DNA of 64,000 nt from assembly GCA_030524805.1 (NCBI GenBank), contig JAUNFY010000002.1:11680-75679 (forward strand), read 5' to 3'. The notes under the pieces were generated by a model. That model worked only from the letters and a program-made list of their open reading frames with translations, ran no database searches and was not told the origin of the DNA. The translations under genes and the position numbers were made by a program. Positions 28,911 to 57,809 of this stretch are shown here, in pieces. The DNA comes from Bacteroidales bacterium (GTDB taxonomy: Bacteria > Bacteroidota > Bacteroidia > Bacteroidales > Muribaculaceae). How positions within the stretch are numbered: position 1 is the first letter of the stretch; each line of letters begins with the position of its first letter.

Positions 28911-28956
28911 TTGGCAAGATAGCATATAGAATATTTTGTTGATATTGCTAACTTTG
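28911..28956 (+). promoter_or_regulatory. Conserved box 1 plus -7 element (upstream of the SGNH esterase gene)
   Basis: ttGGCAAGATAGCATATA at 28911-28928. TAACTTTG at 28949-28956, 36 nt from the GGC. Confidence 0.55.
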
Positions 28957-29009
28957 CCGATAGTAATCGACAATCCAATAACAAAACATGAATAACTGAT
29001 AACAGAAAC

Positions 29010-29702
29010 ATGAAACTCAAAATTTCCTTATTGATGGTGGTGCTCATGTTGGCGCTTAACGGATTTGCAGCCGACGACTGGGCTAATCTTTCGAGATATG
29101 TCAAATCGAACAAAGAAATCATGGCCCGCAGTGATAAAAACGACCATCTCGTAGTATTTCTGGGAAATTCCATCACGGATGGATGGCCTAATTCGAACAA
29201 GGCTTTTTTCGAGGATAATAACTTCGTAGGGCGTGGCATCTCAGGCCAGACCACTTACCAATTCCTGGTGAGATTCTACAGCGATGTGGTCAATCTGCAG
29301 CCGGAAGCAGTTGTGATCAACGGAGGAATCAATGATATCGCTGAAAACAATTATGAATATGATGAGACAAGAACCTTCAACAATCTAAAGGCGATGGCAG
29401 AGATAGCCGATGCCAACGGCATAAAGGTGATTCTGACAAGTGTCTTGCCTTCGGATAGATTTGGTTGGCGTCCGCTCAAGACTGAGATCGCACCGAAAGT
29501 GATGTCGCTCAACAAACGGATAAAGGCTCTTGCAAAGGAAAAAGGATATGCTTATGTGGATTATTTTTCGCCGATGGAGGATTCGACAACTCATGGCATG
29601 AAAGATGAATACACAAATGACGGAGTACATCCTACGGATAACGGCTATCGCAAGATGGAGGAAATCGTATTGCCGGTGATCAGGTCGGTCGTGAAACGGT
29701 AA
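29010..29702 (+). CDS. SGNH/GDSL-family esterase (secreted)
   Basis: Signal peptide. Block I VVFLGNSITDGW and block V DGVHPT. Confidence 0.8.
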   Translation: MKLKISLLMVVLMLALNGFAADDWANLSRYVKSNKEIMARSDKNDHLVVFLGNSITDGWPNSNKAFFEDNNFVGRGISGQTTYQFLVRFYSDVVNLQPEAVVINGGINDIAENNYEYDETRTFNNLKAMAEIADANGIKVILTSVLPSDRFGWRPLKTEIAPKVMSLNKRIKALAKEKGYAYVDYFSPMEDSTTHGMKDEYTNDGVHPTDNGYRKMEEIVLPVIRSVVKR

Positions 29703-29885
29703 AAAAAGCGCAAAAAATAGTTTATGTTGATAATTTCATGCGATGAGGATGAGCAGCAATGCTTGTCCTCTTGCTTTTATGTCATTTGAAAACCAAGTCG
29801 GCCATACTCTCTTCTCGGCTGCTGCCGTTGATGATTTCTGACTTTATTGTCAGGAATTGCTGATGTGGCATGAAATGTCACAAGT

Positions 29886-29932
29886 TTGGCGGGATTTTAT
29901 AATAATCAAGCCGGACTTTTTTTCTAAATTTG
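29886..29932 (+). promoter_or_regulatory. Conserved box 2 plus -7 element (upstream of GH97)
   Basis: ttGGCGGGATTTTATAAT at 29886-29903 (the most degenerate copy). TAAATTTG at 29925-29932, 37 nt from the GGC. Confidence 0.45.
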
Positions 29933-29964
29933 AGCATCTAATACAAAACTAACCCAATTATAGA

Positions 29965-31911
29965 ATGAAAAAAGCATTAGTATCCCTGATTGTTGTCGGA
30001 AGTTTTGCTCTTCCGGCTATAGGAAAGCCAGCCTCCTATAAGGTGGCTTCGCCGTCGGGAGATCTGGAATTGAATGTGAATGTCGGCGACGGCATCGACT
30101 ATTCTGTGTCCCGGAAAGGAAAGAGTGTAATAGATAAGGCTGTGGTCGGAATAGACTTTGACAAAAAGAAGAACTCGATCAAAGTCAGAAGTGCCAGAAA
30201 GGGAACCCACAAAGGAAAGATAGAGCCAGTGGTGCCCATGAAGTTTTCATCGATCGACGACGACTACAATTCGCTTACACTGAATTTGACCGGCAATTAT
30301 GCGATAGAATTCAGGGTCATGGACGAGGGTGTGGCACATCGGTTTGTCGCATCACTTCCCGACTCAATCAATGTCATAGACGAAACGTTTGAGCTCAATG
30401 TGCCAAAAAATGCGATGATGCACCTTCAGCAGGCACGAGGCTTCAAGACTTCATACGAGGAGTCTTATTCGCACAAGCCGGTGTTGGAATGGACAGAAGA
30501 GGAAAAAATGAGCACCCTGCCCGTGCTTATGGAGAGCGATGGCAATGTGGCTCTTATATGTGAGACAAATCTTCGTGATTATCCGGCATTCTTCCTGAAG
30601 GGAGATGGCGATGGCCGGTTTCATGCCGTTTTCCCCAAGGTTCCTCTTAAATTCGGCCCTGATGGAGACCGCAGTCTCAAAATACTTGAAGAGGCTCCCT
30701 ACATAGCCCGCACGGCAGGCAAGCGTGATTTCCCTTGGCGCTACATAGTGGTGGGCGATCCGCAGGATATACTTACCAACACCATGAGTGCGCGGCTTGC
30801 CGATCAGCCGGCCGGCGACTTCTCATGGGTAGAGCCCGGTCAGGCAAGCTGGGAATGGTGGAATGGCGCGACGCCATACGGCGAGGATGTGAATTTCGAG
30901 GCAGGATGCAATCTTGACACATATAAGTATTTCATCGACTTCGCATCAAAATATGGTATAAAATATATTATCATGGATGAAGGGTGGGCTAAGTCAACAC
31001 TTGATCCGTTCACACCCAACCCCAACGTAGACCTTCATGAGTTGATCCGCTATGGCAATGAAAAAGGGGTAGGAATAATCCTCTGGCTCACATGGCTTGC
31101 AGTGGAGAATAATTTCGATGTATTCAAGACCGTATCCGATTGGGGCATCAAAGGACTGAAAATCGACTTCATGGACCGGAGCGACCAGTGGATGGTGAAT
31201 TATTACGAACGGGTGGCAAAAGAAGCAGCCCGACATGGCCTGCTTGTAGACATGCACGGCTCTTTCAAACCGGCAGGTCTGGAGGTGACCTATCCCAATC
31301 TTATAAACTATGAGGGCGTGAGGGGCATGGAGCAGATGGGAGGCTGCCGACCTGAAAACTCAATCTATATTCCTTTTATAAGGAATGCAGTGGGTCCGCA
31401 GGACTATACACCGGGCGCCATGATCTCGATGCAGCCTAATTGCTACCGTGCGGATCGCCCGAATTCGGCTTCAATCGGCACCCGCGCCTATCAGATGGCC
31501 CTCTTTACCGTTTTTGAGGGAGGCCTGCAGATGCTTGCCGATAATCCTACGTTGTATTATCGCAACAATGATTGCACTGAATTCATAACGTCAGTACCCA
31601 CTACCTGGGATGAGACAGTGCCTTTGGTGGCAGAGATAGGCAAGACAGTGGCGGTAGCCAAGCGTAAGGGCGACACCTGGTATATAGGTGCTATCACCGG
31701 AAGCAACGAAAAATGGAATGAATATACATTCGATCTTGATTTCCTTGGCGATGGAACTTACTCGATGACAGCGTTCAGCGACGGCATAAACGCACCCACG
31801 CAGGCCATGGACTACCGCAAGACAGACAGCAAGGTGACAAAAAAAGATAAGATTGATGTTAAACTCGCCAGGAATGGTGGATGGACAGCAGTCGTAAAAC
31901 CATCAAAGTAA
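29965..31911 (+). CDS. GH97 glycoside hydrolase (alpha-glucosidase/alpha-galactosidase family)
   Basis: SWEWWNG, YIIMDEGWA, GLKIDFMDRSDQWMVNYYERVAKEAARHGLLVDMHG; pattern typical of GH97. Confidence 0.85.
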   Translation: MKKALVSLIVVGSFALPAIGKPASYKVASPSGDLELNVNVGDGIDYSVSRKGKSVIDKAVVGIDFDKKKNSIKVRSARKGTHKGKIEPVVPMKFSSIDDDYNSLTLNLTGNYAIEFRVMDEGVAHRFVASLPDSINVIDETFELNVPKNAMMHLQQARGFKTSYEESYSHKPVLEWTEEEKMSTLPVLMESDGNVALICETNLRDYPAFFLKGDGDGRFHAVFPKVPLKFGPDGDRSLKILEEAPYIARTAGKRDFPWRYIVVGDPQDILTNTMSARLADQPAGDFSWVEPGQASWEWWNGATPYGEDVNFEAGCNLDTYKYFIDFASKYGIKYIIMDEGWAKSTLDPFTPNPNVDLHELIRYGNEKGVGIILWLTWLAVENNFDVFKTVSDWGIKGLKIDFMDRSDQWMVNYYERVAKEAARHGLLVDMHGSFKPAGLEVTYPNLINYEGVRGMEQMGGCRPENSIYIPFIRNAVGPQDYTPGAMISMQPNCYRADRPNSASIGTRAYQMALFTVFEGGLQMLADNPTLYYRNNDCTEFITSVPTTWDETVPLVAEIGKTVAVAKRKGDTWYIGAITGSNEKWNEYTFDLDFLGDGTYSMTAFSDGINAPTQAMDYRKTDSKVTKKDKIDVKLARNGGWTAVVKPSK

Positions 31912-31916
31912 CTACA

Positions 31917-34091
31917 ATGAAAGCAAATAAAACCCTATTTATATTAGGAGCGGTGGCAAGCCTCCTCACAGCGGGCTGCTCCCCGAAGGATGATGACACT
32001 ATAGGTGGAGTGACACGTTATGTCAATCCTCTCCTTGGCACAGCCACCCTGTGGGAGACCGAGGATCTTGGATATGAACGGCATCGGGAACAGCGCACGT
32101 GGGGTGCGGAGGTTTACCCGGGGGCAGCGCTCCCGAACGCAATGGTGCAGCTCACGCCTGTCACTATGTGGCATGCCGGTGCTGGTTATCAGTATGAAGA
32201 TCCCACTATCCTGGGCTTTGCACACACCGCGATGGGACATTGGAATCTGATCGACCTCCCGATGATGCCGGTCACAGGCACTTTCAATGCCGACAATTAT
32301 GCTTCACCATACTCACACGAGAATGAATCCGCTCACCCGGGCTATTATCAGGTGAAGCTCGAGCGTTATGGAGTGAATGCCGAACTCACCAGCACCCTGC
32401 ATGCCGGCTATCACAGATACACCTTCAAGGAAAACGATCCGAAACGTCTGCTTGTGAATGTGGCCCACAATCAGGGCAACGTGAGATCGTGGGAAATGGA
32501 GCAGGTGGATGAGAACGCGTTTGCCGGCAGGCAGAACGGTCTTTATTACTATGCAGTGACCAATCTGCCGATCGATTCCATTCAATTCCTTAAAAGCAAG
32601 GCTGAGAGGGGAGTGCCTGTAGCAGTGGTTGATTTCAAGGACAATACAGGTAAGGAGCCGCTTGAAGTCAAAGTCGGCATATCTTACGTAAGCGTAGACA
32701 ATGCCCGCCGGAATCTTGCTGCCGAGATGTTGTCGAAGAATTTTGATCAGGTGAGAGGCGAGGCAAACGATACATGGGAAAATCTGCTCGGGAAAATTCA
32801 GGTGGATGGTTGTTCGGAGCGTGAGAAGGGTTTGTTCTATAGCACTCTTTATCGCTCCATGCTCAATCCTCGCCTTGAGAGCGACGTAAACGGTGAATAC
32901 CGCGACCGAAAAGGAGAGATTATAAAGGATGCGGATTCCCGCTACTATTCCAACCCGGCTTTTTGGGATGTAGGGCGATCGCAACTTATTCTTCTCGGTA
33001 TGTTGCAGCCGGATGTCATGAATGATGTAATGAAGTCAACTATTGACCGGGGAGAGAAAGACAAAGGTTTCATCCCGACATATTTCCATGGTGATTTCGC
33101 GCCGGCAGTGGTGATAGGCAGCTGGAAACGTGGAATAAAGGATTTTGACTTGAAGCGTGCATATAAACTTGCGCTGAAAAGTGCGACCGAGGCCGGCGAC
33201 GGAGGGCGGAGGTTTATGGATGAGTATCTTGAGAAAGGATATGTCTCAGACGAGAATCTGTCCGACAATCCATTCTGGGAGGAACACAGAGGAGGTGTGA
33301 CAAAGACTCTTGAATATGCTTATGCAGACTATGCAGTGGCGCAGATAGCCAAAGAGCTTGGCGATACCGTCAACTACAAGCTGCTTATGGACCATAGCAA
33401 GAATTACAGGAATGTCTTCAATCCGGAAAACGGTTTCTTCCAGGGCAGGATAGAAGATGGCAACTGGCTCATGCCTTACGATCCGGATATGGGATATTAT
33501 CAGCATCAGTATAGGGAGGCGAATGGCTGGAACTCACTCTTCTACGCTCCACATGATCCGGAAGGCGTGGTTGCACTCTATTCGTCGAATGAAGTGATAG
33601 AAGCAAAACTCGACACTCTTTTCACTCGCCCCTACAACGGATATGAAATCGCTAACATGACAGGCTTCATCGGCAACTACTGCCACGGCAACCAGCCGGG
33701 TCACAACATTCCCTACACTTATTATTTCATAGGCAAGCAGGAGAAATCGCAGGAACGTCTTAATGAAATCATGGACCGCTTCTACGATATGGGAAAGGAT
33801 AAGCTGGCGTATGCCGGAATGGACGATGCCGGCGGCATGTCGGCATGGTATGTGCTTAACGCACTTGGTCTGTTCACATATTCTCCGGCCGACCCGGAAT
33901 ATCTGGCATCTGTGCCATTGTTTAAGGAAGCATCCTTCAAACTTGGAGAAAAACCATTCAAGATCAAGCGGGAAGGAAATGGCACAAGAATTGAAAAAAT
34001 AACAGTCGGAGATAAAGTGCTGGATGGGTATTTTGTGCCGGATTCACTATTGCGTGCCGGCGACACCCTTACCATCTACACTGACAAATAA
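31917..34091 (+). CDS. GH92 alpha-mannosidase (lipoprotein)
   Basis: Internal ATG at 31917 gives MKANKTLFILGAVASLLTAGC (lipobox). YVNPLLGT near the N-terminus and GNQPGHNIPYTYYF near the C-terminus are typical of GH92. Confidence 0.85.
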   Translation: MKANKTLFILGAVASLLTAGCSPKDDDTIGGVTRYVNPLLGTATLWETEDLGYERHREQRTWGAEVYPGAALPNAMVQLTPVTMWHAGAGYQYEDPTILGFAHTAMGHWNLIDLPMMPVTGTFNADNYASPYSHENESAHPGYYQVKLERYGVNAELTSTLHAGYHRYTFKENDPKRLLVNVAHNQGNVRSWEMEQVDENAFAGRQNGLYYYAVTNLPIDSIQFLKSKAERGVPVAVVDFKDNTGKEPLEVKVGISYVSVDNARRNLAAEMLSKNFDQVRGEANDTWENLLGKIQVDGCSEREKGLFYSTLYRSMLNPRLESDVNGEYRDRKGEIIKDADSRYYSNPAFWDVGRSQLILLGMLQPDVMNDVMKSTIDRGEKDKGFIPTYFHGDFAPAVVIGSWKRGIKDFDLKRAYKLALKSATEAGDGGRRFMDEYLEKGYVSDENLSDNPFWEEHRGGVTKTLEYAYADYAVAQIAKELGDTVNYKLLMDHSKNYRNVFNPENGFFQGRIEDGNWLMPYDPDMGYYQHQYREANGWNSLFYAPHDPEGVVALYSSNEVIEAKLDTLFTRPYNGYEIANMTGFIGNYCHGNQPGHNIPYTYYFIGKQEKSQERLNEIMDRFYDMGKDKLAYAGMDDAGGMSAWYVLNALGLFTYSPADPEYLASVPLFKEASFKLGEKPFKIKREGNGTRIEKITVGDKVLDGYFVPDSLLRAGDTLTIYTDK

Positions 34092-34112
34092 TCGGAGTGT
34101 CGATTTTTATAA

Positions 34113-37724
<3,612 letters not shown>

Positions 37725-38125: not shown

Positions 38126-38192
38126 ATGGCGGAATTGTATATAATTTTGTCGTGATATGAAACAGGTCTGATATATCTTATAACTTATTTTG
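38126..38192 (+). promoter_or_regulatory. Conserved box 3 plus -7-like elements (upstream of the GH27/36-like gene)
   Basis: atGGCGGAATTGTATATA at 38126-38143. A perfect TAATTTTG overlaps it at 38142-38149. TTATTTTG lies at 38185-38192, 57 nt from the GGC. Confidence 0.5.
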
Positions 38193-38258: not shown

Positions 38259-39782
38259 TTGATGAAAACTGATTTGAATATGAACAGGAAAATCATACTG
38301 GCTATGATGTCGGGATTTTGTCTTTATGCGGCGGCGGATGTAAATCTGGTGCCGGAGACTCCAAGCGGAGCCCCCGACTATTTTTGCACTTGGAATCTTC
38401 AGGGATATCAGGTGAATTATACAGGCTCCGAGAATCTGCGTAGGGCAATGAACGAGGAAAGCTTGTTCGGACATGGAGCAGGACAGAGATGGGTAAATAT
38501 GTTTCCGGAAATTCAGTCAGACCTGTGGTTTGTACTTGATGATTCATGGGATATTCCTGCAGATGTAAACTATAAGAAGAATAATCCTTATATCGGTACG
38601 GATGAATTGGATTCAAGCCGTTTCCCTTCTTTCAAAGGAAGTCCGGAAGAGCGTTTCCGTCAACTTGGCGATAGCCTGAAGATATATGGATGGAGAGGAT
38701 TGGGACTATGGGTCAGTGCGCAGAAAGCACCGTGTCTTAATGCTATTGCGGACGATGATTTCTGGAAAGACCGTCTTGTCGTAGCGGAGAGAGCTGGAGT
38801 GGGGTATTGGAAAGTAGACTGGGGAAATCAGGACCGGGACGATTCATTCAGGCGCAAACTGTCGGATATGGCCCGGAAATATGCTCCCGGACTTACTTTG
38901 GAAAATGCCATGAAGAACGAATACATCACATTCAGTGATGCTTTCCGTACATACGATGTGGAAAATATCATAGCACAGCCCGTGACCATAGAACGGGTAG
39001 CAAGGCTTTTGCCTTACAAGGCGCAGCCGGGAGCCAAGGGAATAATCAACTGCGAAGATGAGCCATATATCGCTGTGGGGCTCGGATGCGCCATAGGAGT
39101 GATGCGTCATCCTTATTCAGGCAATTTGCCCGACGGATCGCCCGATCATGCTTTTCCTTCTACAGTGCGTGATCTCAAGAACAGGCTTGATGAGGTGATC
39201 CGTGCTGTGAGATGGCATAGGATTGCCGAGCCGTTTGCAGTAGACGGTGACTATGTGAAGGATGATGATATATTGAATGATTTTTGGATCTATATGCCGG
39301 AAGAGTCGTGGGTGCGACACGAGGAAGGTGATGCGGTGGAAGGAAGCGCTCCGGCACGAGTCAGCCGCAAGATGCCGTTGCCGGTGGTTGATTCAGAAGA
39401 TTCCGACCGTCCGTATGTGCTGGCATCCCGTTATCCCAATGGTGCCACCGCAGTGAGTGCGATAGGCCGCACGTTAAAGCGCAAATATATCGAGAAGCCT
39501 GTAGATGTTGAGATAGAAGCGGGCTCATGGTCTGCTCCAATCGGAATATTTGGCTATTTCAGCAATCTGACAGCCAATTTCTCCGATGTGAAAGGCATCC
39601 CTGCAAAGGTGAGGGTTTATGCACAGGATTTGAAAGGGAATCATGCGGTGGATGTCACCGACAGGGTCATGTTTGATGGCAAGTCGTTGTCGGTGCCGGG
39701 AGATGTCATCGACGGCATCGGAAGGATGTATTCCGCACCCGGTGACAAAAGTTCTCCCGGACTGGTGATCGTGGTGAGATAG
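38259..39782 (+). CDS. Secreted hypothetical protein with clan GH-D (GH27/GH36-like) TIM-barrel motif pattern
   Basis: Signal peptide (alternative start 38280, MNRKIILAMMSGFCLYAAAD). Ordered motifs resemble GH27: PDYFCTWNLQGY, FVLDDSW, DSSRFPSF, GLGLWVS, GVGYWKVDWGN. Confidence 0.45.
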   Translation: MMKTDLNMNRKIILAMMSGFCLYAAADVNLVPETPSGAPDYFCTWNLQGYQVNYTGSENLRRAMNEESLFGHGAGQRWVNMFPEIQSDLWFVLDDSWDIPADVNYKKNNPYIGTDELDSSRFPSFKGSPEERFRQLGDSLKIYGWRGLGLWVSAQKAPCLNAIADDDFWKDRLVVAERAGVGYWKVDWGNQDRDDSFRRKLSDMARKYAPGLTLENAMKNEYITFSDAFRTYDVENIIAQPVTIERVARLLPYKAQPGAKGIINCEDEPYIAVGLGCAIGVMRHPYSGNLPDGSPDHAFPSTVRDLKNRLDEVIRAVRWHRIAEPFAVDGDYVKDDDILNDFWIYMPEESWVRHEEGDAVEGSAPARVSRKMPLPVVDSEDSDRPYVLASRYPNGATAVSAIGRTLKRKYIEKPVDVEIEAGSWSAPIGIFGYFSNLTANFSDVKGIPAKVRVYAQDLKGNHAVDVTDRVMFDGKSLSVPGDVIDGIGRMYSAPGDKSSPGLVIVVR

Positions 39783-39838: not shown

Positions 39839-39884
39839 TTGGCAGAATTGCATACACTTTTTACATCTGTTTTTTCTTATTTTG
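39839..39884 (+). promoter_or_regulatory. Conserved box 4 plus -7-like element (upstream of the GH115-like gene)
   Basis: ttGGCAGAATTGCATACA at 39839-39856. TTATTTTG at 39877-39884, 36 nt from the GGC. Confidence 0.5.
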
Positions 39885-41952: not shown

Positions 41953-41955
41953 GCC

Positions 41956-42450: not shown

Positions 42451-42452
42451 AG

Positions 42453-44174: not shown

Positions 44175-44344
44175 ATTTGTATAAATAGTTAAGTACCTTT
44201 AAATAAGTAAATAAATTCGGAGGCTTTCGAAGTCAATGTTTCTTTCGGTGTCTTTTGCGGGTCTTCCGCCAAGTATCATCGGCTGCAACGCCAGCTTGCT
44301 CCCTTTTTCAACTTGCGGAATCCATCGTGAAATCCTTTCGAAAT

Positions 44345-44368
44345 AAATATCAATTCAAATATCAATTC
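44345..44368 (+). repeat. Perfect tandem 12-mer x2 upstream of the DUF362-like gene
   Basis: aaatatcaattc aaatatcaattc, flanked by the imperfect inverted repeat cgaaataaa/tttattcg (44339-44377). Confidence 0.85.
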
Positions 44369-44410
44369 GTTTATTCGAGCCATTTACAATAAAAGATCAT
44401 TAAATTCAAG

Positions 44411-45886: not shown

Positions 45887-45889
45887 TAT

Positions 45890-48556
45890 ATGAATAAAAC
45901 AGTATTTACTTCAATTATAATAACAGTAACGATGCAGCTTTGCTATGCTGAAAGCAACCAAAATTATAGTGAAGCATTCCCGTTGGTGCCGGATTATAAA
46001 AATTCGCTTTTAAATCAGTGGTCGAAAAAACCTGTGTCAGACTCTATTCTTGTCGATGATATGGAAACGGCAGGGAAATGGAAAGTCAAAGAAGGGCCGG
46101 TCACTATCAGTATAAGTGAAGATCGTGCTATAGATGGTAAAAGCTCCCTGAGATACAGAACCATCATGCGCGATACAGCACACCTGTCGAATCCTAAAAA
46201 CCGTACCGCATGGGGAACTTTTGGCGGAGAGCAGGGCGGTGGTTCAAAAGTCGGGCTTACTTTTGATACCCCGCAGGATTGGAGTGATTTCAATCGGGTT
46301 TCGGTGTGGGTGTATATCCATCCGACATCTACTCCAATCCATCACTTCTTTCTTGACATAGTGAATGAAGACACTGATTATAATACGGTCACTCCGCGTC
46401 ATGATTCCGTGATTGAAGACCTTACTCCCGGAGAATGGCATGAGGTGCTGTGGGAAATTTCGGATGTGCCGCGCGACAAGGTTAAGGAATTCAATATTTT
46501 CCAGACACTCATAGGCGTTGAACCGGGCAATGACTTATATGAGACATTTGATTTCGACCGTCTGCAATTACAGCGAGTGGAAGGGGATCATTATGATGGA
46601 TGGCAGATACCTGCCGGCAAGATTGCCTATTCACATGTAGGCTATCGTCCGGAAGATGCAAAAGTCGCAATTGTCAGGAGTTTAAGCGAAAAGACGTTTG
46701 AGATCATAGATGAAGATGGTAATATAGTATTCACCGGTATGCCGCAGCGAAAAGTCGACAATACCGGTGAGTATGACATATTGGATTTCTCAAGCCTTAA
46801 AGCGGATGGTACATATTCAATCAAATATGGTGATATTGTTTCCAATCCGTTTGCTGTGGATAAAGATGTGTGGTTGCTTCCGATCCATTCCGGTATAAAT
46901 TTCTATTATTGTCAGCGTTGTGGCTATGCGGTGGAGGGAATTCATGACGTGTGCCATCAGGACTGGACCGGTTTCCATGGCAATGAAGTCAAGAATATCA
47001 ATATGGGCTGGCATGATGCCGGCGATTTGTCGCAAGGTTATTTCCGCACAGCCATGGGCACATACGCATTGCTGCGCAATCTTGCCAATTTGAAAAAATC
47101 AAAGTCGGACAGGAATATAATTGAAAAACTTGAAGATGAAATAAAATGGGGACTCAAGTATCTTGTCAACAATCATTTCAGCGATGGACATCACATTTCG
47201 TGGGCGCGTCAGCGCATCTATAGCGACAACGTGAAGGGCACTGTCGATGATGTGGCCATCAAAACTGAAAATGTAGCATGGGAGAATTTTCTTGGAGCCG
47301 CCGTATTGACGTATGCGGCGGAAGTGTTGCCTGAACTCGACAGACAGTTTGCCAAGGAGATGAAAGCAGTGGCAATCGATAATTACAAAGAGGCAGTCAA
47401 GGCCGCGAGCAATCAGGTGCTGGAACTCAGTTGGGGAGCTACGGCAGCATCGTTGCTCTACAAGGCTACAGGCGATGCCGGTTATCGACAGGATGCCGAG
47501 AAATTCGGAAATCTCCTCACCGAATGTCAGGAACCCAATATAATAGGATCAGAACTTACGGTTACCGGCTATTTCTATACCTCACCCAAGAGGGAAAGGA
47601 TTGTTCAGAATAATCACAGTGCATTTTATGAGGCTCCCATTATAGCTTACAGAGTGCTGTGCGAGACGTTTCCCGATTCAGATAGCTGGATGGATTGGTA
47701 TGCGGGGGCCGTGCTTCATTCTGATTTTCTGCAGAAAAACGGTTCTCTTATCTCGGGGCCATTCGCGTTGGTGCCCAATGCTGTATATCGGCAGAGCGAT
47801 ATTGATGAGATGCGCAATGAGCGTCAGAAGTATTTCACTCAGGTGCAATATGATGATGGAACAAGACTTGACGATAATCGTATGATCCGAACCTTCCCGA
47901 TCTGGAGCAACGATCTTTTCCATGGTGGCACTTCATGTCATCTATCCAATTCGTGGGCTTTGGCTGAAGCTTCCTTGTTGCGGAGAGATGCCGAAGGGCT
48001 GGACCTTGTGGCCAAACAACTTGAATGGACGTTCGGAAGGAATCCCTTCACCCAAAGCTTTATGTATGGAGTAGGCTACAATTACACTCCGCAATTTGCC
48101 TACTGTACTAAAAATGTAGTGGGATCGCTGCCTGTAGGTATTGACTGCATGAGCGGCGACGCCCCTCATTGGAATGGTTCCGCCTATGCCACCTGCAAAG
48201 AGATGTGGATCGAGCCGGTGAGCCGTTGCATGGGTACTATGGCTGCCTATACGGAGAGGAATCTCAGTAAATCTGAACCGATCAATATCGTGGCAGAAGA
48301 AAGTGGCGATGATAAGATTCTGCTCAATGTAGATTCTTTTCCTTCAGATTGCTATCAGGTAGATGTAAGGTTATGGAATGCAGTGGCAGAAAACGTGCCA
48401 ACGGAAATTTCCAAGAATGTAAGTCGGCTATCGGTGCCTATAAAGGTTTCGGATACATCCAAACCGTATGTGGCGGTAGTGACGCTTTCCACACCGGGTG
48501 GTCGACGGATATCACGCGATTTTTCAGGTGTCGTAAGTTCCAGAACTAATAAATAA
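45890..48556 (+). CDS. GH9-like (alpha/alpha)6 protein with N-terminal CBM-like and Ig-like (CelD_N-type) domains
   Basis: IAYSHVGYRPEDAKVAIV (Ig-like N-domain), GWHDAGDLSQGY (GH9 DAGD motif), IKWGLKYLV, FGRNPFTQSFMYGVGYNY. The usual GH9 HHR motif was not seen. Confidence 0.5.
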   Translation: MNKTVFTSIIITVTMQLCYAESNQNYSEAFPLVPDYKNSLLNQWSKKPVSDSILVDDMETAGKWKVKEGPVTISISEDRAIDGKSSLRYRTIMRDTAHLSNPKNRTAWGTFGGEQGGGSKVGLTFDTPQDWSDFNRVSVWVYIHPTSTPIHHFFLDIVNEDTDYNTVTPRHDSVIEDLTPGEWHEVLWEISDVPRDKVKEFNIFQTLIGVEPGNDLYETFDFDRLQLQRVEGDHYDGWQIPAGKIAYSHVGYRPEDAKVAIVRSLSEKTFEIIDEDGNIVFTGMPQRKVDNTGEYDILDFSSLKADGTYSIKYGDIVSNPFAVDKDVWLLPIHSGINFYYCQRCGYAVEGIHDVCHQDWTGFHGNEVKNINMGWHDAGDLSQGYFRTAMGTYALLRNLANLKKSKSDRNIIEKLEDEIKWGLKYLVNNHFSDGHHISWARQRIYSDNVKGTVDDVAIKTENVAWENFLGAAVLTYAAEVLPELDRQFAKEMKAVAIDNYKEAVKAASNQVLELSWGATAASLLYKATGDAGYRQDAEKFGNLLTECQEPNIIGSELTVTGYFYTSPKRERIVQNNHSAFYEAPIIAYRVLCETFPDSDSWMDWYAGAVLHSDFLQKNGSLISGPFALVPNAVYRQSDIDEMRNERQKYFTQVQYDDGTRLDDNRMIRTFPIWSNDLFHGGTSCHLSNSWALAEASLLRRDAEGLDLVAKQLEWTFGRNPFTQSFMYGVGYNYTPQFAYCTKNVVGSLPVGIDCMSGDAPHWNGSAYATCKEMWIEPVSRCMGTMAAYTERNLSKSEPINIVAEESGDDKILLNVDSFPSDCYQVDVRLWNAVAENVPTEISKNVSRLSVPIKVSDTSKPYVAVVTLSTPGGRRISRDFSGVVSSRTNK

Positions 48557-48594
48557 AACAAAGTGATTTAAATATTAATATATTAAAGAGTAAC

Positions 48595-51045
48595 ATGAGA
48601 TATTTGGCTGTTTTTGTCAGTGGATTGCTGGCGGTAGCGCCTGCTTTTTGCAAGGATCTGCAGGTCACTTCTATTCCTCAGCAGGGTGACTTCCCGATTA
48701 TTGCTGCCGGGAATGTTTCCGATATTGTCATTGATGCAGATGATGCTCCGGTAGTCGCAGTGGCGGCAGAGGCAGTGGCCGGCGACATGAAGTTGATCAC
48801 CGGCAAAGACATGTCGGTGGTCAATATGGTTTCGTCTGATTGCCTTCCCATCATAGCGGGCACCATAGGCGAATCGGATTTTATCGACAGATTGGTAAAA
48901 GAGAAAAAGATAAAAGTAAAGGATGTAAAGGGAAAATGGGAGACATTCCTCATCCAGATTGTAGATAAACCTCTTCCCGGAGTTGCCAGGGCTCTCGTCA
49001 TTGCGGGCAGTGATCCCCGCGGCACAGCCTTCGGCCTTTTTCAACTTTCGAGACTTGCCGGGGTATCCCCTTATGTGTGGTGGGCTGACGTGATTCCTGA
49101 GGAACGGCCGGAATTATACGTCAGTGGCGATCCGATGATTTCCAAAGAGCCATCAGTACGGTTCCGGGGAATGTTTATCAACGATGAGGATTTCGGACTC
49201 AATCCTTGGGCTTCGAAGAAGATGGATCCGGAAAGGAAGAATATAGGACCGAACACTTATGCAAAGGTTGCCGAACTTCTTCTTCGACTCCGCGCCAATA
49301 CTTTATGGCCTGCCATGCATGCCTGTTCGGAAGCTTTCTGGGCAAATCCCGCCAATGTGGAGGTGGCCCGCCGATACGATATCGTCCTGGGCTCAAGCCA
49401 TTGCGAGCAGATGCTACGCGACAATGAATGGGAATGGAGAAGACAGGGACTTGGCGAGAAGGAGTGGAATTGGAAAACAAATAAAAAAATGGTTCAGGAT
49501 TACTGGGCAAAACGTGTTGGCGAGAGCCGTGGCATAGACGCCATGTATACTCTCGGAATGCGCGGAGTCCACGACACCGGCATGAATGGCTACACGGATG
49601 AGGACAGGGTGGAAGGACTGACCGATGTGATCAGATGGCAGCGTCAGCTGCTTGCCGACTCAATCGGCGACCCGTTGACGTTGCCGCAGATTTTCATACC
49701 GTATAAGGAAGTGCTTGAGGCATATAATGATGGCTTGAAAGTGCCGGAAGACGTCACTTTGTGTTGGGTAGACGACAATCATGGATACATCCGCCAGATG
49801 CCTACTCCTGAGGAGCAGAAGCGCAGTGGAGGCAATGGCATGTATTATCATCTATCCTATCTCGGCACTCCTGTGCCGTGGTGCTGGCTGTCGTCCGTGT
49901 CTCCATCCCTTGCTTCTTTCGAGCTTACGAAAGCGTATGACAATAATGTGAAGAAACTCTGGATCATCAATGTGGGTGACATCAAGCCTCAGGAGCCTGA
50001 ATTAGAATTCTGTATGGATCTGGCCTATGATATCAATTCTTATCCTCCGCTGACAGCATATCAGTATACGCGCGACTGGGCTGCCCGCACATTTGGAGAG
50101 GAGTTTGCCGATGCTATCGCGGATATCCGGCGTGTCAACTATCATCTTTCATCCGCCGGCAAGCCGGAACATATTTATGCCGTGCCCTACAGCATAAAGG
50201 AGCAGGATGCCAGAATCGCGGAATATGACCGGGTGATAGCCAAGATTGATTCTCTCCGCCCGCATATTCCCGCACGGCTTCAGGACGCGTATTACGAACT
50301 GGTGACCTATCCGGTGAAAGCAGCCGGATGGATGAATAAGAAAGTTTTCCGCGATCAGCAAAGCGAGAAATATGCCAAGGCCGGCATGAGAGATGAGGCT
50401 GTCAGGGCTTATGAGAATTCTGCGGCAGCCTATACGTCGATACATTCGGTGACAGACCATTACAATCGCAACATAGCCAATGGCAAATGGAATGGAATTG
50501 TCCGTTACCTGCCCTGGGGGCACGGACCTGCCTACAAAATGCCTACTGATTTCACTGATTCTGTCGCAAATGTGAAGACACCTCTTGATCTTGGCAGGGA
50601 GCAAGTGGTGAGGGGTGGCGATTATCAAGCCGCTTCCGTGACTGTCAGGGCCATCGAAGGTCTTGGCACTTCCGATTTCGCCGCCACTGTCTGGCCTTTG
50701 AATCATAAGGCTTACGAAGCGTCGGAGCTTGCCAAAGCACCTTATGTAGAGTATCTGGTGCCGGTCAAGCAAGGAGAAAACAAAATAGATGTGAGATGCC
50801 TGTCGTCATTCCCGCTGAATCCGAATTATGATCTTCGTGTCGGAGTGGCAGTGGATGAGAAGTCTCCCGAAGTGATATCGGTCAAGACCGAGGCAACAAA
50901 GGGAAAATGGCATCAGACCTCAATAGCCGGTTATTCACCGGCCAGGGTAAGCTACACCGCATCTCATGACGGCGATGTCAAGGTAAAAGTGTATCTTCTC
51001 GATCCGGGTGTAGTGGTAAATGATATCGTGTCTGCACCTATATGA
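48595..51045 (+). CDS. GH115 alpha-glucuronidase family protein
   Basis: Signal peptide. GSDPRGTAFGLFQLSRLAGVSPYVWWADV and VRFRGMFINDEDFGLNPW, typical GH115 N-terminal and catalytic regions. Confidence 0.75.
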   Translation: MRYLAVFVSGLLAVAPAFCKDLQVTSIPQQGDFPIIAAGNVSDIVIDADDAPVVAVAAEAVAGDMKLITGKDMSVVNMVSSDCLPIIAGTIGESDFIDRLVKEKKIKVKDVKGKWETFLIQIVDKPLPGVARALVIAGSDPRGTAFGLFQLSRLAGVSPYVWWADVIPEERPELYVSGDPMISKEPSVRFRGMFINDEDFGLNPWASKKMDPERKNIGPNTYAKVAELLLRLRANTLWPAMHACSEAFWANPANVEVARRYDIVLGSSHCEQMLRDNEWEWRRQGLGEKEWNWKTNKKMVQDYWAKRVGESRGIDAMYTLGMRGVHDTGMNGYTDEDRVEGLTDVIRWQRQLLADSIGDPLTLPQIFIPYKEVLEAYNDGLKVPEDVTLCWVDDNHGYIRQMPTPEEQKRSGGNGMYYHLSYLGTPVPWCWLSSVSPSLASFELTKAYDNNVKKLWIINVGDIKPQEPELEFCMDLAYDINSYPPLTAYQYTRDWAARTFGEEFADAIADIRRVNYHLSSAGKPEHIYAVPYSIKEQDARIAEYDRVIAKIDSLRPHIPARLQDAYYELVTYPVKAAGWMNKKVFRDQQSEKYAKAGMRDEAVRAYENSAAAYTSIHSVTDHYNRNIANGKWNGIVRYLPWGHGPAYKMPTDFTDSVANVKTPLDLGREQVVRGGDYQAASVTVRAIEGLGTSDFAATVWPLNHKAYEASELAKAPYVEYLVPVKQGENKIDVRCLSSFPLNPNYDLRVGVAVDEKSPEVISVKTEATKGKWHQTSIAGYSPARVSYTASHDGDVKVKVYLLDPGVVVNDIVSAPI

Positions 51046-51056
51046 TTTTCCATGAT

Positions 51057-54000
51057 ATGAAGAAAGTATTATTTTTATTGATGCTCTTTGTGGCTTCGAT
51101 GACTGTGAAGGGAGCTGACGACCGCCCGGATGTCAACACAGATGAAAGCAAGGTGAAACCTTACACTCTTCCCGACGCGCTGACTACGAAGAAGGGAAAG
51201 AAAGTCAATACAGCGAGAGAGTGGGAGAAAGACCGCCGCCCCGAACTCTATGATTTGTTTGCAACTGAAGTTTATGGCAAGATGCCGTCGGGCAAGTATG
51301 ATGAAAAGTTTGCAGTGACGGCCGTTGATCCTGATTATGCGGGCGGCAGAGCCACTCATAAGACTATCAAGGCAACTTTCAGCCGCAAAGGAAGGAGCCG
51401 GGAGGCATGTTTCCATCTGTATATCCCTAACGGAGTAGCGAAAGCACCAGTGTTCATGTATTTCTCCGGTGAGGCCAAGGGTGATGACCCGAAGTTGCTG
51501 AGACTTCTTGATGCCGGATATGCGCTTTGTACGGGCGATAATGGAGAGTTTTTCCCCGACCGGAAGGAAAACCCCTATGCCGGGAGCGTGCTCAGCCTCT
51601 GGGGCTATGACAGGGAGGATAAGCTACCAGCAGATTGCGCCCGGGCTCTTGCCGTGTGGGCGTGGGGACATAGCAGAGCCCTTGATTATCTGGAGTCGGA
51701 TCCTGACGTCGACGCTTCGAAAGTAGTGGTGATGGGTTTTTCGCGTGGTGGAAAACTCGCCGGGTGGGCAGCCGCAAGCGATCCACGCTTCGCAATGGCT
51801 ATTCTCAACGACTCCGGATGCGGAGGTGCGGCACTTTTCCGTAGGAAATATGGCGAGAATGCCTATCGTATCAATACGGCATTCCCATATTGGTTTTGTG
51901 AGAACTTCCACAAATACAGTCTTAAGAATCCCTCACTTCCGGCAAGTCAGGATAATCTCAACGAGGATGCCCTCCCGGTTGACCAGCATGAGTTGATCGC
52001 CCTCATCGCTCCGCGCCCGGTGTATGTAGGCAGTGGAGAAGACGACAGCTGGTCAGACCCCAAAGGCGAATTTCTCGGCGTGGCGAATGCAGGTGAAGTA
52101 TATGCTCTCTATGGCTATTCCGGAATTGATACACTGGAGCAACCCGCTGTGAATCATCCGGTAGGCGACCGTGTGGCTTACCATGTGCGCTCCGGCGGAC
52201 ATGCGGTGAAAGTTTTTGATTGGGAAAACTATATCCGGTTTGCAGACAGGTGGCTGAAGGATAAGGGCGACGCCGAAAGGGCGATAGAAGCAGCCGATGT
52301 AGTTCGCACCGATTATAATCCGGGGCCACAAGTCTATCTTTATCAGGGCAATGGCCAGTTTGGCACTTCGGTAGGACCACTCGGACTACACCTCCGTCCT
52401 GAGCAGAAAGACAGCCGGTGGGGAAAGACAATGCTGCTGAATCTCAACCATCAAGGTCGCGGCAAATTCAATCAAGACTACGTGGTGCCGATGCTCGAAA
52501 TGTATTGGGGCCGGAATTTTGAAACTGTTTCAGATTACTGCCAGAAGCAGTCTTATTATAATGCTACCATCACAACGACCTTCAAGGGCGACGGGGTGGG
52601 ATATAGTGTTGAAAGTTGGTTTGATCCTGTCGATAAGTCGTTGTGCGTCTTTACTATCTATGCCGGGAAAGGAGGTGCTGAGGTTATAGTGTCGCCTTTT
52701 GAAGAAATAGATATTCATTATTCGCAGCACCTTGAGCCTGATGTCAGCATATCGCAGGTCGGCAATCAGTGGAAAATCACAATGGAATGTCTGGGCAAAC
52801 GTTCGGAGCTCTATCTGACGACAAATGCTGCTGCAAGGATTGATGGAAAGAAACTTGTAGTGACCCTGATGGAAGGCAACAACGATATAGAGATAGCTTA
52901 CGGCAAGGAGGTGTCGACTACGGTTGCAAAATCATTGAGCCAGACCAAAGACTGGTGGCATTCCAGATGGAACCGCTCTTATCTGAACATCCCGGAAGAC
53001 AAAGCTCAGAAAACATTCGTGCGCTCGATTGCGATGTTTCTTTCATCTTACGACGACACCAAGATCGGACTTAGCCCACCGATGGGCTATACCGGTAATT
53101 GGTGGCCCGGATACTATCCTCAGGATGTGTCGTATGTCCATGGAGCACTCCTGCCAACAGGAAATCTTGATATAGCAAGGTCGTGGATTGAATATTGGGC
53201 AGAACCTGAAAGGATAGAAGGCCTGCGAGCATATACCCGCCGGCTATATGGCAAAGAAGGTCTGTTGGCACCCTGGGTGTATCCCTATGGAAGTTTTGAA
53301 GGGTATCACGTTCCCGCGCCACCCAACAAGTTCTTCTATGAAATACACAATTCAGGATATTTCGCCCGGATGGCTGCCGAGACCGCTGAGTATGTCGACA
53401 ATCCGGAATGGACAGCACGGTATGCGAAGCCAATTTTGGAAGGATGTGCGGAATTTTATTCCAACATAATGACCAAAGGCGACGACGGCAAGTGGCATCT
53501 GTATGTCTATCCCTCGATGGGGCAGGATGAGCAAGGAGGTGAAAACCAGAAAGATTATCTATGCGCATCCTACAGCGCCCTCTATTGCCTGCAGCAGGCA
53601 GTCAGGCATGGTCTTGACAAAGACGGGCATTATCAGCAGATTCTCGACGACGGACTTGGATACGTAAATCAGAAGTCACCCTTAGGATTCTATTATTCCT
53701 CAGCCGGCAGCGGAGAAAAAGAATTCGGCCGTCAGAAACATCCCGTTCAGCTCAATGAACTCGCTTTCCTTCCGATAGGCACCGAAGCATCTGAATCGGC
53801 AAAAGTGGTATATGACCGACGGTATGACATCACCAACGGAGCAAAACGCCCGTTCTTTTTCGGTTGGACATTAGGCGAGTTCCTGCTTGCAGGCTCACGC
53901 CGGGGAGATGTGGAAGGCTGGAAATATGACTGGGCCAATATGGAGAAGTCTGATTATGTGGATCCTGAATGGATTCAGATATATGAGACAAGTGGCAATA

Positions 54001-54287
54001 CCACGACACCCTTCTATAATGTGACCAACGGCCTTGTGGTGCAATCGCTTATAAGCAATCTTGTGTGTGATTGGTATGGTCGGCTGGAACTTGCCAAATG
54101 CAATCCCTGGAAAGGAGTGGTGACCCTCAAGGGCATCAATTCGATATTGGGAGTCACGATCGATGGAGAGATAGAAGGAAAATCCTACGATGTGGTCATG
54201 ACAGCATGGAAAGATGCAGACTTTATATTGGACGGCAAGCAAATCATTCTCAGAAAAGGAGATAAGGTCAAAGTCTCCAATAAGTGA
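51057..54287 (+). CDS. Fusion protein: CE15-like glucuronoyl esterase domain plus C-terminal (alpha/alpha)6 glycoside-hydrolase-like domain
   Basis: Signal peptide MKKVLFLLMLFVASMTVKGAD (an alternative ATG at 51042 overlaps the GH115 stop as ATGA). CE15 pattern KVKPYTLPD...W...RRPELYDLF..EVYG, nucleophile motif GFSRGGK (Ser codon 51741-51743), RSGGHAV..DW. The C-terminal ~650 aa show a GH65/GH95-like pattern (DWWHSRWNRSYLNIPEDKAQKTFVRSIAMFL). Confidence 0.6.
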   Translation: MKKVLFLLMLFVASMTVKGADDRPDVNTDESKVKPYTLPDALTTKKGKKVNTAREWEKDRRPELYDLFATEVYGKMPSGKYDEKFAVTAVDPDYAGGRATHKTIKATFSRKGRSREACFHLYIPNGVAKAPVFMYFSGEAKGDDPKLLRLLDAGYALCTGDNGEFFPDRKENPYAGSVLSLWGYDREDKLPADCARALAVWAWGHSRALDYLESDPDVDASKVVVMGFSRGGKLAGWAAASDPRFAMAILNDSGCGGAALFRRKYGENAYRINTAFPYWFCENFHKYSLKNPSLPASQDNLNEDALPVDQHELIALIAPRPVYVGSGEDDSWSDPKGEFLGVANAGEVYALYGYSGIDTLEQPAVNHPVGDRVAYHVRSGGHAVKVFDWENYIRFADRWLKDKGDAERAIEAADVVRTDYNPGPQVYLYQGNGQFGTSVGPLGLHLRPEQKDSRWGKTMLLNLNHQGRGKFNQDYVVPMLEMYWGRNFETVSDYCQKQSYYNATITTTFKGDGVGYSVESWFDPVDKSLCVFTIYAGKGGAEVIVSPFEEIDIHYSQHLEPDVSISQVGNQWKITMECLGKRSELYLTTNAAARIDGKKLVVTLMEGNNDIEIAYGKEVSTTVAKSLSQTKDWWHSRWNRSYLNIPEDKAQKTFVRSIAMFLSSYDDTKIGLSPPMGYTGNWWPGYYPQDVSYVHGALLPTGNLDIARSWIEYWAEPERIEGLRAYTRRLYGKEGLLAPWVYPYGSFEGYHVPAPPNKFFYEIHNSGYFARMAAETAEYVDNPEWTARYAKPILEGCAEFYSNIMTKGDDGKWHLYVYPSMGQDEQGGENQKDYLCASYSALYCLQQAVRHGLDKDGHYQQILDDGLGYVNQKSPLGFYYSSAGSGEKEFGRQKHPVQLNELAFLPIGTEASESAKVVYDRRYDITNGAKRPFFFGWTLGEFLLAGSRRGDVEGWKYDWANMEKSDYVDPEWIQIYETSGNTTTPFYNVTNGLVVQSLISNLVCDWYGRLELAKCNPWKGVVTLKGINSILGVTIDGEIEGKSYDVVMTAWKDADFILDGKQIILRKGDKVKVSNK

Positions 54288-54351: not shown

Positions 54352-54373
54352 CTTTACGCAGGAGGTGGTTGTC

Positions 54374-56020: not shown

Positions 56021-56061
56021 AAATTCAACAGTTCGTCAATAGTGGAGAAAAGTGCCTTTTC

Positions 56062-56107
56062 TTGGCAGAATAGCGTACAAGTTTTATTCGATATCAATGT
56101 AAATTTG
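56062..56107 (+). promoter_or_regulatory. Conserved box 5 plus -7 element (upstream of GH125)
   Basis: ttGGCAGAATAGCGTACA at 56062-56079. TAAATTTG at 56100-56107, 36 nt from the GGC. Confidence 0.55.
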
Positions 56108-56139
56108 CACTATGAATTACTAATCATAAGTGAAACAAG

Positions 56140-57600
56140 ATGAAGAAAGCATTTGTAGCTTCCGCTCTGGTTCTTTTTGCAGGAGGGCTGGCTTCAACCT
56201 CAGCCAACGCTTCTGAGATATGCCGGACGGACAAGGTAGTAAGTAAGAAAACCCAGAAACCGCGCCCCACGAACCGCCCGGCCAAGGGAGAGCGCCTTTT
56301 TCATTCAGATGCAGTGGAAAAGAAAATTGCAGAGGTTAAAAATCAGCTTGCCAACGAAAAATTGGCTTGGATGTTTGAGAATTGTTTCCCAAATACCATC
56401 GATACAACCGTACATTATCGTAAAGGAGCAGACGGAAAGAACGACACATTTGTATACACAGGCGATATTCATGCAATGTGGCTGCGGGATTCAGGAGCGC
56501 AGGTGTGGCCGTATGTCAGGCTTGCAAATGAAGATCCGGCATTGAAAGATATGCTCGAGGGCGTAATACGCCGACAGTTGAAATGTATTCTCCTTGATCC
56601 GTATGCAAATGCCTTCAATGACGGCCCTACCGGCGGATCCTGGCAGTCTGATTTCACAGATATGATACCTGAAGTGCATGAGCGCAAATGGGAGATCGAT
56701 TCTCTATGCTATCCCATACGTCTGGCATACGAATATTGGAAAGTGACTGGAGATTCCTCAATCTTCGATGAGGAGTGGCTGGCTGCAATGGATCTGATTG
56801 TGGCTACCTTTAAAGAACAGCAGCGTTATGATGGAGTGGGAAAATATACATTCCAACGTCGTACGGAGCGTGCGCTTGATACGCTCAACAACGGAGGCAA
56901 TGGAGCACCTGTCAATCCCTGTGGTCTGATAGTGTCATGTTTCCGTCCGTCTGACGACGCTACTACATTGCAATTCCTTGTTCCTTCCAATTTTTTCGCA
57001 GTCTCGGCGCTTCGCAAGGCAAGCGAGATTCTTGCTTCGGTGAATGGAGAGAAATCCAAAGCGGAAGAATGTCGTCGGCTTGCCAATGAGGTTGAGGCTG
57101 CCCTCAAGACATACGCCGTATATAATCATCCGGTGTTCGGCGCTATCTACGCATTCGAGGTTGATGGCTTCGGCAATCATTTCCTCATGGACGACGCCAA
57201 CGCTCCAAGCCTGCTCTCTCTTCCTTATCTTTGCGATGTGGATGAAAACGACCCTATTTATCAAAACACCCGTAGATATGTGTGGAGCGAATACAATCCC
57301 TATTTCTTCAAAGGGAATGCCGGAGAGGGTATAGGTGGCCCGCATATCGGCTATGACATGATATGGCCCATGAGCATTATGATGCGGGCTTTCACAAGTC
57401 AGGACGACAATGAAATTTGTGATTGCATAAGAATGCTGCTTGCTACGGATGCGGGCACCGGATTCATGCATGAATCGTTCAACAAAGACGATGCGTCAGA
57501 CTTCACCCGTCCGTGGTTTGCATGGCAAAACACTCTTTTCGGGGAGCTTATCGTGAAGCTTGTAGATGAAGGAAAGGTCGATCTTCTGAATAAAATCTGA
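56140..57600 (+). CDS. GH125 metal-independent alpha-mannosidase (DUF1237)
   Basis: [19 protein letters not shown] and a ~480-aa (alpha/alpha)6 protein with signal peptide; the hallmark GH125 motif. Confidence 0.85.
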
Positions 57601-57646
57601 TATCCGGACATCGCATGATGTCGATATCGCTTAAAGCAGTTTGTAG

Positions 57647-57679
57647 ATTGGTGTCCTGTGCTCTGTATAGGACACCAAT
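57647..57679 (+). terminator. Hairpin after GH125 (no clear T-tract)
   Basis: attggtgtcct / aggacaccaat 11-bp stem with an 11-nt loop. Confidence 0.45.
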
Positions 57680-57742
57680 TCATGTTATACTGCTGGTAAT
57701 TAATGGAATGGGTGTCTGCAAGTTTTTTGAGTGTCTTATGTT

Positions 57743-57809
57743 TTGGCAGAATTGTATACAAAATTAGCATGATAATGTGCAGGATAGTCGGATGAATTTG
57801 CTAAATTTG
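57743..57809 (+). promoter_or_regulatory. Conserved box 6 plus -7 element (upstream of the HTCS gene)
   Basis: ttGGCAGAATTGTATACA at 57743-57760. TAAATTTG at 57802-57809, 57 nt from the GGC. A half-box-like aatttgcatacaaa overlaps the -7 element. Confidence 0.55.

Follow-up and report, generated by a model that had tools for sequence, protein, structure and literature searches.

How are the genes of a glycan-degradation island controlled in a gut bacterium that has not been cultured? The window analysed here is a stretch of 64,000 nucleotides (64 kb) of contig JAUNFY010000002.1, from an uncultured Bacteroidales metagenome-assembled genome (MAG) whose closest named relative found was a Sangeribacter (Muribaculaceae) genome; its right-hand part holds an island of glycoside hydrolase (GH) and esterase genes together with the gene of a hybrid two-component system (HTCS), a membrane-bound sensor with an AraC-type output domain. 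An earlier reading of the DNA alone, referred to below as the original prediction, had pointed to six copies of a short box at fixed distances from -7 promoter elements and had proposed that they form the operator of this HTCS. From the analysis that follows, it is likely that the box is an operator half-site of the island's own HTCS, which would bind tandem half-sites as a dimer and activate the six boxed promoters of the window as well as a GH3-GH2 operon. For an uncharacterised glycan sensor from an uncultured gut Bacteroidales lineage, the outcome is an operator sequence with its promoter geometry, along with a predicted regulon that counts six promoters inside the window and one more just outside.

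Five matches to TTGGCRGAATWGYATAYA with no more than three mismatches were found in the window, at 28911, 38126, 39839, 56062 and 57743, all on the + strand; shuffles of the window held 0.48 matches on average, and none of 100 shuffles reached five. Because TTGGCRGAATWGYATAYA is the consensus of the original prediction and was derived from these same sites, two independent checks were carried out. De novo motif discovery, which had been proposed along with the box, was run as an unbiased word search on the 27 intergenic regions of the window; with 16-mers and up to three mismatches, two families exceeded the shuffle maximum, namely the -7 promoter element and the box, the latter in 5 of the 27 regions against a shuffle maximum of 4. 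Words of this length were needed; among 12-mers and 14-mers with up to two mismatches, A/T-rich promoter-like words dominated and the box was not singled out. For the other check a matrix was trained on 14 sites, all of them from loci of other species. The six boxes took ranks 1 to 6 of approximately 128,000 window positions with this matrix (scores 26.0, 25.8, 24.8, 22.0, 18.7 and 15.5); dinucleotide shuffling, repeated 100 times, gave top scores of 14.2 on average and 21.5 at most. The sixth box, at 29886, had been described as the weakest copy and did rank last, yet it is real: the orthologous GH97 promoter in another species (locus L008) carries TTGGCTGGATTCGGCACA, then 20 nt, then TAATTTTG. 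All six boxes proved to be intergenic and to point toward + strand genes, as had been reported, and the matrix scan bore out the earlier remark that no housekeeping gene in the window is preceded by a box. An RNA element was also considered and rejected, given that no Rfam family or tRNA was found within the window and that the box sits upstream of the -7 element.

Housekeeping promoters of Bacteroides consist of TAnnTTTG at -7 and TTTG near -33 (PMC7366714). Measured from the GGC of the box to the -7 element, the distances for the six boxes in order are 36, 37, 57, 36, 36 and 57 nt; all six figures of the original prediction stood, except that the elements at 38185 and 39877, both TTATTTTG, depart from TAnnTTTG by one mismatch. 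Between the proximal box and the -7 element the sequence of the spacer varies but its length is fixed at 20-21 nt, and the distance from GGC was 36/37 or 57 nt across the inspected promoters. TTTG at 19-20 nt upstream of the -7 element, present at four or five of the window's promoters that have no box, was absent from all six box promoters; at these, the -33 position is taken up by ATACA, the 3' end of the proximal box. This arrangement had been claimed for the 36-37 nt class and was here extended to all six promoters; the dependence on an activator that it suggests keeps the status of a prediction.

The two spacing classes, correctly seen to lie about two helical turns apart, had been taken as such; they are not two types of promoter, but the distal and proximal positions of one tandem pair of half-sites 21 bp apart. 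Explicit pairs of boxes at exactly this interval occur in three loci of other species (L006 4986/5007, L007 3858/3879 and L009 6016/6037). Within the window, both 57-nt boxes are followed 21 bp downstream, that is at the 36-nt position, by a weak box (38147 and 57764), and the one at 57764 aligns with the strong proximal box of orthologous HTCS promoters. When matrix scores were averaged around 28 strong sites, the score peaked at offset -21 only (z = 4.8). Every promoter has a strong or weak box at the proximal position, and many have a partner two helical turns upstream. For 16 HTCSs of B. thetaiotaomicron, all predicted motifs are two-site direct repeats with an average period of 21 bp, and binding of a dimer on one face of the DNA was proposed (PMC3878776); footprints of BT4124 revealed tandem half-sites 21-22 bp apart (PMC13292587). 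Since the 21-bp tandem direct repeats of the window match these published operators, the box has the anatomy of an HTCS operator. It is a new operator motif, of an uncharacterised HTCS clade, within an already described type of control element, and no new kind of regulatory system is revealed.

Near the HTCS promoter, TTGCTAAATTTGCATACA (57798-57815, +) overlaps the -7 element and, with a matrix score of 12.5, is similar to the box in its 3' half; the likeness is possibly a coincidence, TTTGCA being frequent after -7 elements.

According to the original prediction, the box joins the GH97/GH92/GH2 block to the distal operon as one putative regulon, and enrichment of the box in orthologous loci of related genomes would be a check on it. 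The comparison covered six ortholog loci (L003 and L005-L009), one relative at 46% (L010) and a copy from the same species (L001/L002); the HTCS orthologs, from metagenome assemblies, are 66-74% identical. Gene order is shuffled among the ortholog loci, and the boxes stay with the GH125, HTCS, SGNH and GH97 genes: five loci have a box 78-86 nt from the ATG of GH125, five of the six ortholog loci have one approximately 102-105 nt from the ATG of the HTCS gene, and boxes before SGNH and before GH97 are both found in L008. The recurrence of boxes before the same genes in rearranged loci supports the single regulon. When seven GH125 promoters were aligned, nothing was invariant except TTGGC, AT and ACA within the box and TAAnTTTG at the -7 element, and the spacer measures 20-21 nt in all seven; aligned HTCS promoters likewise retain the blocks of the box and the -7 element, plus a second box upstream. 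Shortly past the window's right end (L002 19460-19477, minus strand; window coordinate about 67.3 kb) there is a seventh box, TTGGCAGAATCGCACACA, which precedes a minus-strand GH3-GH2 operon, and the regulon therefore reaches past the window.

Domain annotation identified the HTCS as the sole DNA-binding regulator in the island, as had been proposed. The protein comprises a periplasmic propeller sensor (Reg_prop, Y_Y_Y), HisKA, HATPase_c and Response_reg domains, and an AraC-type helix-turn-helix output domain (HTH_18/HTH_AraC); HTCS orthologs are present in all related loci. A ROK-family protein encoded directly downstream was rejected as a candidate regulator: it aligns to the NagC model at positions 113-350 only, so that it has no DNA-binding domain and is sugar-kinase-like, and it is absent from the ortholog loci. 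The naming of the HTCS as the box-binding protein gained indirect support from the box before the HTCS gene in most ortholog loci and from the occurrence of the box with its spacing beside HTCS genes in four further lineages, described below; HTCS binding, activation over repression and the identity of the glycan are all points that we infer from sequence.

We reasoned that one 18-bp box would fit one AraC-type domain, with two helix-turn-helix units in two adjacent major grooves, and that the two domains of a membrane-anchored HTCS dimer would settle on two tandem boxes, 21 bp apart and on the same face of the helix. Upon binding of a glycan fragment by the periplasmic sensor and phosphorylation of the receiver, the DNA-binding domains would be released; once on the operator, they would bring in RNA polymerase in a class II-like way, the proximal domain contacting the polymerase from the -33 position. 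The genes switched on would be those of the SGNH esterase, GH97-GH92-GH2, a 507-aa protein, the operon from the GH115-like gene to the esterase, GH125, the HTCS with the ROK protein and, outside the window, GH3-GH2; by acting on its own promoter, shared with the ROK gene, the HTCS would exert positive autoregulation. The exact phasing of 20-21 nt, kept while spacers diverge, would be useful evidence on the contact between an HTCS and the RNA polymerase of Bacteroidota, about which little has been shown so far.

One genome for each of 185,579 species, a set that does not include the source genome, was scanned for TTGGCRNRATNNYRTAYA followed at 20-21 nt by TANNTTTG, and 31 matches to this module of box and spacing were obtained. 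Sixteen matches lie outside Bacteroidota, which is about the chance level as estimated rather than computed, and 11 of these 16 fall inside long open frames. The intergenic Bacteroidales matches all stand before glycan-related genes. The module precedes the HTCS ortholog in Sangeribacter (L037) and the ortholog of the GH115-like gene in a Muribaculaceae genome (L032); in a Porphyromonadaceae MAG (L021) and a roe-deer Bacteroidales MAG (L025) it precedes a GH125 gene directly downstream of an HTCS gene, and in a Paludibacteraceae MAG (L035) a SusC gene adjoining an HTCS gene. In B. intestinalis (L011 7328, minus strand) it precedes a SusC gene from which an HTCS gene is divergently transcribed, and the orthologous SusC promoter was also matched in B. 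oleiciplenus, B. cellulosilyticus and an uncultured Bacteroides MAG (L022, L033, L038). Four more independent lineages of Bacteroidales (L021, L025, L035 and the L011 group) therefore have the module next to an HTCS gene, and in Bacteroidales it is found almost only beside HTCS or glycan-utilisation genes. Within the Bacteroides group (L011, L022, L033, L038) the box reads TTGGCGAGATMTTGTATA, with 20 nt to TAATTTTG, and lies about 230-270 nt upstream of the SusC gene.

A wider reading, which we regard as possible but rather doubtful, takes the box, at its constant 20-nt distance from TAnnTTTG, as a portable promoter module that depends on an activator and is common to Bacteroidales families (Muribaculaceae relatives, Porphyromonadaceae, Paludibacteraceae and Bacteroides), where HTCSs that are only 33-47% identical would use it. 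If so, an AraC-type domain would replace -33 recognition by sigma-ABfr, paralogous sensors for different glycans could cross-regulate via a common half-site, and what is conserved would be a promoter 'grammar' and not one private operator per regulator.

Several observations weigh against assigning the box to an activating HTCS. At 28911, 39839 and 56062, three of the six window promoters, no recognisable second half-site was found. Because the -33 element is weak across the phylum (PMC7366714), its absence from the box promoters is only mild evidence for the need of an activator, supportive and not decisive. The HTCSs beside the same box in L021, L025 and L035 have DNA-binding domains only 36-47% identical to that of the window HTCS, and another HTCS (P0022, in locus L163), at about 48% in this domain, has a quite different tandem repeat; since proteins at 36-47% keep the box while P0022 at about 48% differs, the correspondence of domain to motif is not a simple one. 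These figures would suit an unlinked factor encoded elsewhere, such as a GH125/mannoside regulator or a global carbohydrate regulator, for which the nearness of the HTCS gene is incidental: the GH125 genes of L021 and L025, 71-73% identical, carry the box although the neighbouring HTCS shows only 37-38% identity over the whole protein and 41-47% in the DNA-binding domain, and the comparably distant P0022 uses a different repeat. We nonetheless consider such a factor unlikely, as four of the five independent Bacteroidales intergenic matches outside the ortholog clade adjoin an HTCS gene, an adjacency expected by chance at about 6% (a rough estimate, not a computed value), and two of them have SusC, not GH125, downstream; moreover, the promoter of the HTCS gene itself is boxed in nearly all ortholog loci, and a 21-bp tandem direct repeat is the described signature of HTCS operators. 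The HTCS might instead use the box as a repressor site, the occupied -33 position blocking RNA polymerase. The overlap of the proximal box with this position would allow it, and a constitutively active fragment of BT4124 down-regulates local and distant genes of polysaccharide utilisation loci (PULs), which also tells against activation (PMC13292587). Repression is improbable, however, in that the box promoters have no -33 element of their own, and that an exact phasing of 20-21 nt across family-level divergence fits a contact between protein and polymerase and would be needless for simple occlusion. Most characterised HTCSs, besides, are activators of their own loci.

A two-part promoter of an alternative sigma factor, with the box as a -35-like element ahead of the -7 element, would share the rigid spacing of 20-21 nt, which is also typical of two sigma recognition elements, and the box is superficially sigma-54-like (TGGCA...TTGCA). 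The downstream element is nevertheless the canonical housekeeping motif of sigma-ABfr, TAnnTTTG (PMC7366714), no sigma or anti-sigma gene was found in the island or the ortholog loci, and the extra copies exactly 21 bp upstream would be left unexplained, making such a promoter very improbable. Two specific forms of it were rejected outright: a sigma-54 promoter (TGGCAC-N5-TTGCW) requires 11 nt from GG to GC, as opposed to 8 nt in every copy of TTGGCAGAATTGCA, and a PUL promoter governed by an extracytoplasmic function (ECF) sigma and anti-sigma pair disagrees both with the housekeeping TAnnTTTG and with the lack of Sigma70_r2/r4 and FecR genes in the island and the ortholog loci. Finally, several similar copies within 30 kb in one orientation might be left over from duplicated promoter cassettes or from a small repeat element, with no regulatory role; this is scarcely credible given that flanks and spacers are unrelated between copies, that other species retain the box amid diverged intergenic DNA, and that the window holds neither an Rfam family nor a tRNA. 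An activating HTCS dimer on tandem half-sites is the reading retained in what follows.

Beside P0022, upstream of GH76-GH125 (L163 8925-8975, +), the 21-bp tandem repeat reads TGTTCTCATTTGCGAC / TGTTCTCATTTGTGAC; P0022 has near-identical recognition helices, yet a different operator. Prediction of the motif from the recognition helices was attempted and abandoned; HTCSs with near-identical helices (P0013 and P0022) go with a variant or a different motif, and no clean rule emerged. In the long intergenic region upstream of the P0013 HTCS (L162 8002-8750, +), G+C-rich inverted repeats are accompanied by a short tandem repeat of the CTCCTAAT type, which is unusual among A/T-rich intergenic regions.

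The nearest known counterparts are the predicted HTCS operators of Bacteroides (Ravcheev et al. 2013, BMC Genomics 14:873; RegPrecise; PMC3878776). There, as here, an AraC-type HTCS is encoded beside its targets, and a two-site direct repeat with a period of about 21 bp lies upstream of glycan-utilisation operons and is conserved in orthologous loci; in a number of published alignments (BT4108, BT4114, BT4116, BT2818 and BT0367), by our own reading, the second site ends about 19-21 nt before TAnnTTTG. Among the motifs readable in Additional file 2 of that study (PMC3878776), none matches the box sequence TTGGCAGAATWGYATACA. The host, in contrast, is here an uncultured Muribaculaceae-related lineage, the island has no susC/susD, and about half of the promoters have only one strong half-site. 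Gene content is similar (GH125, GH92, GH97, glucuronidase and esterases) in the HTCS_Man regulons of B. thetaiotaomicron (BT2628, BT3302 and BT3786; alpha-mannan PULs), whose operator, two 16-bp sites with a 5-bp spacer, has the same 21-bp period as in the window. HTCS_Man is not an ortholog, however: the B. thetaiotaomicron-type HTCS (L042) shares 34% identity over the whole protein and 31-33% over the DNA-binding domain, which places it 116th among 121 compared proteins, and the repeat of its locus, GTAAATTTCCGTGCCA / GTTAATTTTAGCGACA, is unrelated to the box, the matrix for which found no match in the L042 intergenic region. A likeness to HTCS_Man sites was also set aside; GCCAGAGTAGTTAA, upstream of BT2629/BT3784, is by eye identical to the box at 10 of 14 positions, but the real 21-bp repeat is in another register and the regulator is distant.

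The operator of BT4124 (PMC13292587, J Biol Chem 2026) is the only footprint-mapped HTCS site that we found, and each of its tandem half-sites is taken to bind one AraC-type domain of a dimer. Its motif, of the CAAAAAATAC type, differs from the box, and BT4124 represses in vivo. A conserved C/SHIP 'latch' motif is present in about 74% of Bacteroides HTCSs (PMC13292587); the receiver of the window HTCS has AHIP in its place (residues about 1155-1165). The published activating latch mutation may accordingly need adapting for this protein.

In its working the proposed arrangement would also resemble the class II promoters of MarA, SoxS and Rob in E. coli. At these, a monomeric AraC-family domain with two helix-turn-helix units stands in for a poor -35; its asymmetric site, about 18-20 bp long, extends into the -35 region and keeps a constant distance to the downstream promoter element. 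The two cases differ in phylum, motif and sigma factor (here sigma-ABfr, with -33 and -7 elements); in the model for the window, two tethered domains would lie on tandem sites, and the regulator would be a membrane protein.

Table 1. Half-sites, promoter elements and genes of the island, in window coordinates
Feature	Position	Strand	Remarks
Box TTGGCAAGATAGCATATA, promoter-proximal half-site, SGNH esterase promoter	28911-28928	+	Other-species matrix score 22.0
-7 promoter element TAACTTTG	28949-28956	+	36 nt from box GGC
SGNH/GDSL esterase, predicted target gene	29010-29702	+	
Weak distal partner half-site GTGGCATGAAATGTCACA	29865-29882	+	21 bp upstream of GH97 box; top 0.9% of matrix scores, exactly -21
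Box TTGGCGGGATTTTATAAT, proximal half-site, GH97-GH92-GH2 operon promoter	29886-29903	+	Weakest copy, rank 6; same spacing in L008
-7 element TAAATTTG, GH97 promoter	29925-29932	+	37 nt from GGC
GH97, GH92, GH2 with ricin-type lectin domains, predicted target operon	29965-37724	+	Starts: GH97 29965, GH92 31881, GH2 with ricin domains 34116; intergene gaps short or overlapping
Box ATGGCGGAATTGTATATA, distal half-site upstream of 507-aa gene	38126-38143	+	
Weak proximal partner half-site TTGTCGTGATATGAAACA	38147-38164	+	21 bp downstream of distal box; top 0.1% of scores, rank 10
-7-like element TTATTTTG	38185-38192	+	One mismatch; 57 nt from distal GGC, 36 nt from proximal site
507-aa protein without detectable family, predicted target gene	38259-39782	+	
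Box TTGGCAGAATTGCATACA, proximal half-site before GH115-like gene	39839-39856	+	Orthologous Muribaculaceae promoter (L032) also has box
-7-like element TTATTTTG, GH115-like promoter	39877-39884	+	36 nt from GGC
GH115-like, 164-aa protein, GH28-like/pectate-lyase fold, DUF362, GH9, GH115, glucuronoyl-esterase-like; predicted target operon, putative extent	39919-54287	+	Starts: GH115-like 39919, GH28-like 42453, DUF362 44411, GH9 45890, GH115 48595, glucuronoyl-esterase-like 51042
GH28	start 54374	-	
Box TTGGCAGAATAGCGTACA, proximal half-site, GH125 promoter	56062-56079	+	Alignment of 7 GH125 promoters
-7 element TAAATTTG, GH125 promoter	56100-56107	+	36 nt from GGC
GH125 alpha-mannosidase, predicted target gene	56140-57600	+	
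Box TTGGCAGAATTGTATACA, distal half-site, promoter of HTCS gene	57743-57760	+	Rank 1 in window
Weak proximal partner half-site TTAGCATGATAATGTGCA, HTCS promoter	57764-57781	+	Top 0.035% of scores, rank 9
-7 element TAAATTTG, HTCS promoter	57802-57809	+	
HTCS gene, 1349 aa, putative box-binding factor	57869-61918	+	
ROK-family sugar-kinase-like gene	61965-63083	+	46 nt after HTCS gene

Gene labels in Table 1 derive from Pfam annotation, which agreed with the earlier labels SGNH, GH97, GH92, GH2, GH115, GH125 and HTCS with AraC-type helix-turn-helix. The label 'GH27/36-like' given to the gene at 38259 was not upheld, its 507-aa product having no family match in Pfam, NCBIfam or PDB sequence searches. 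Standing under a box promoter, this protein could be an undescribed glycan-active enzyme, and the regulon points to it as a likely new one. The GH115-like gene probably heads a long operon reaching 54287; within it, the matrix scan found no box in the 236-nt gap at 44175-44410. The ROK gene is probably co-transcribed with the HTCS gene. Despite at least 15 glycan-related genes and the HTCS, no SusC/SusD pair was found in the island (window 28900-64000), and the transporter of the system, if any, must be encoded elsewhere. The last gene of the GH115-like operon encodes an uncommon fusion: in its 1081-aa product (51042-54287, +), residues 200-358 form a glucuronoyl-esterase domain of fungal type, and residues about 580-820 a weak GH65/kojibiose-hydrolase-like stretch.

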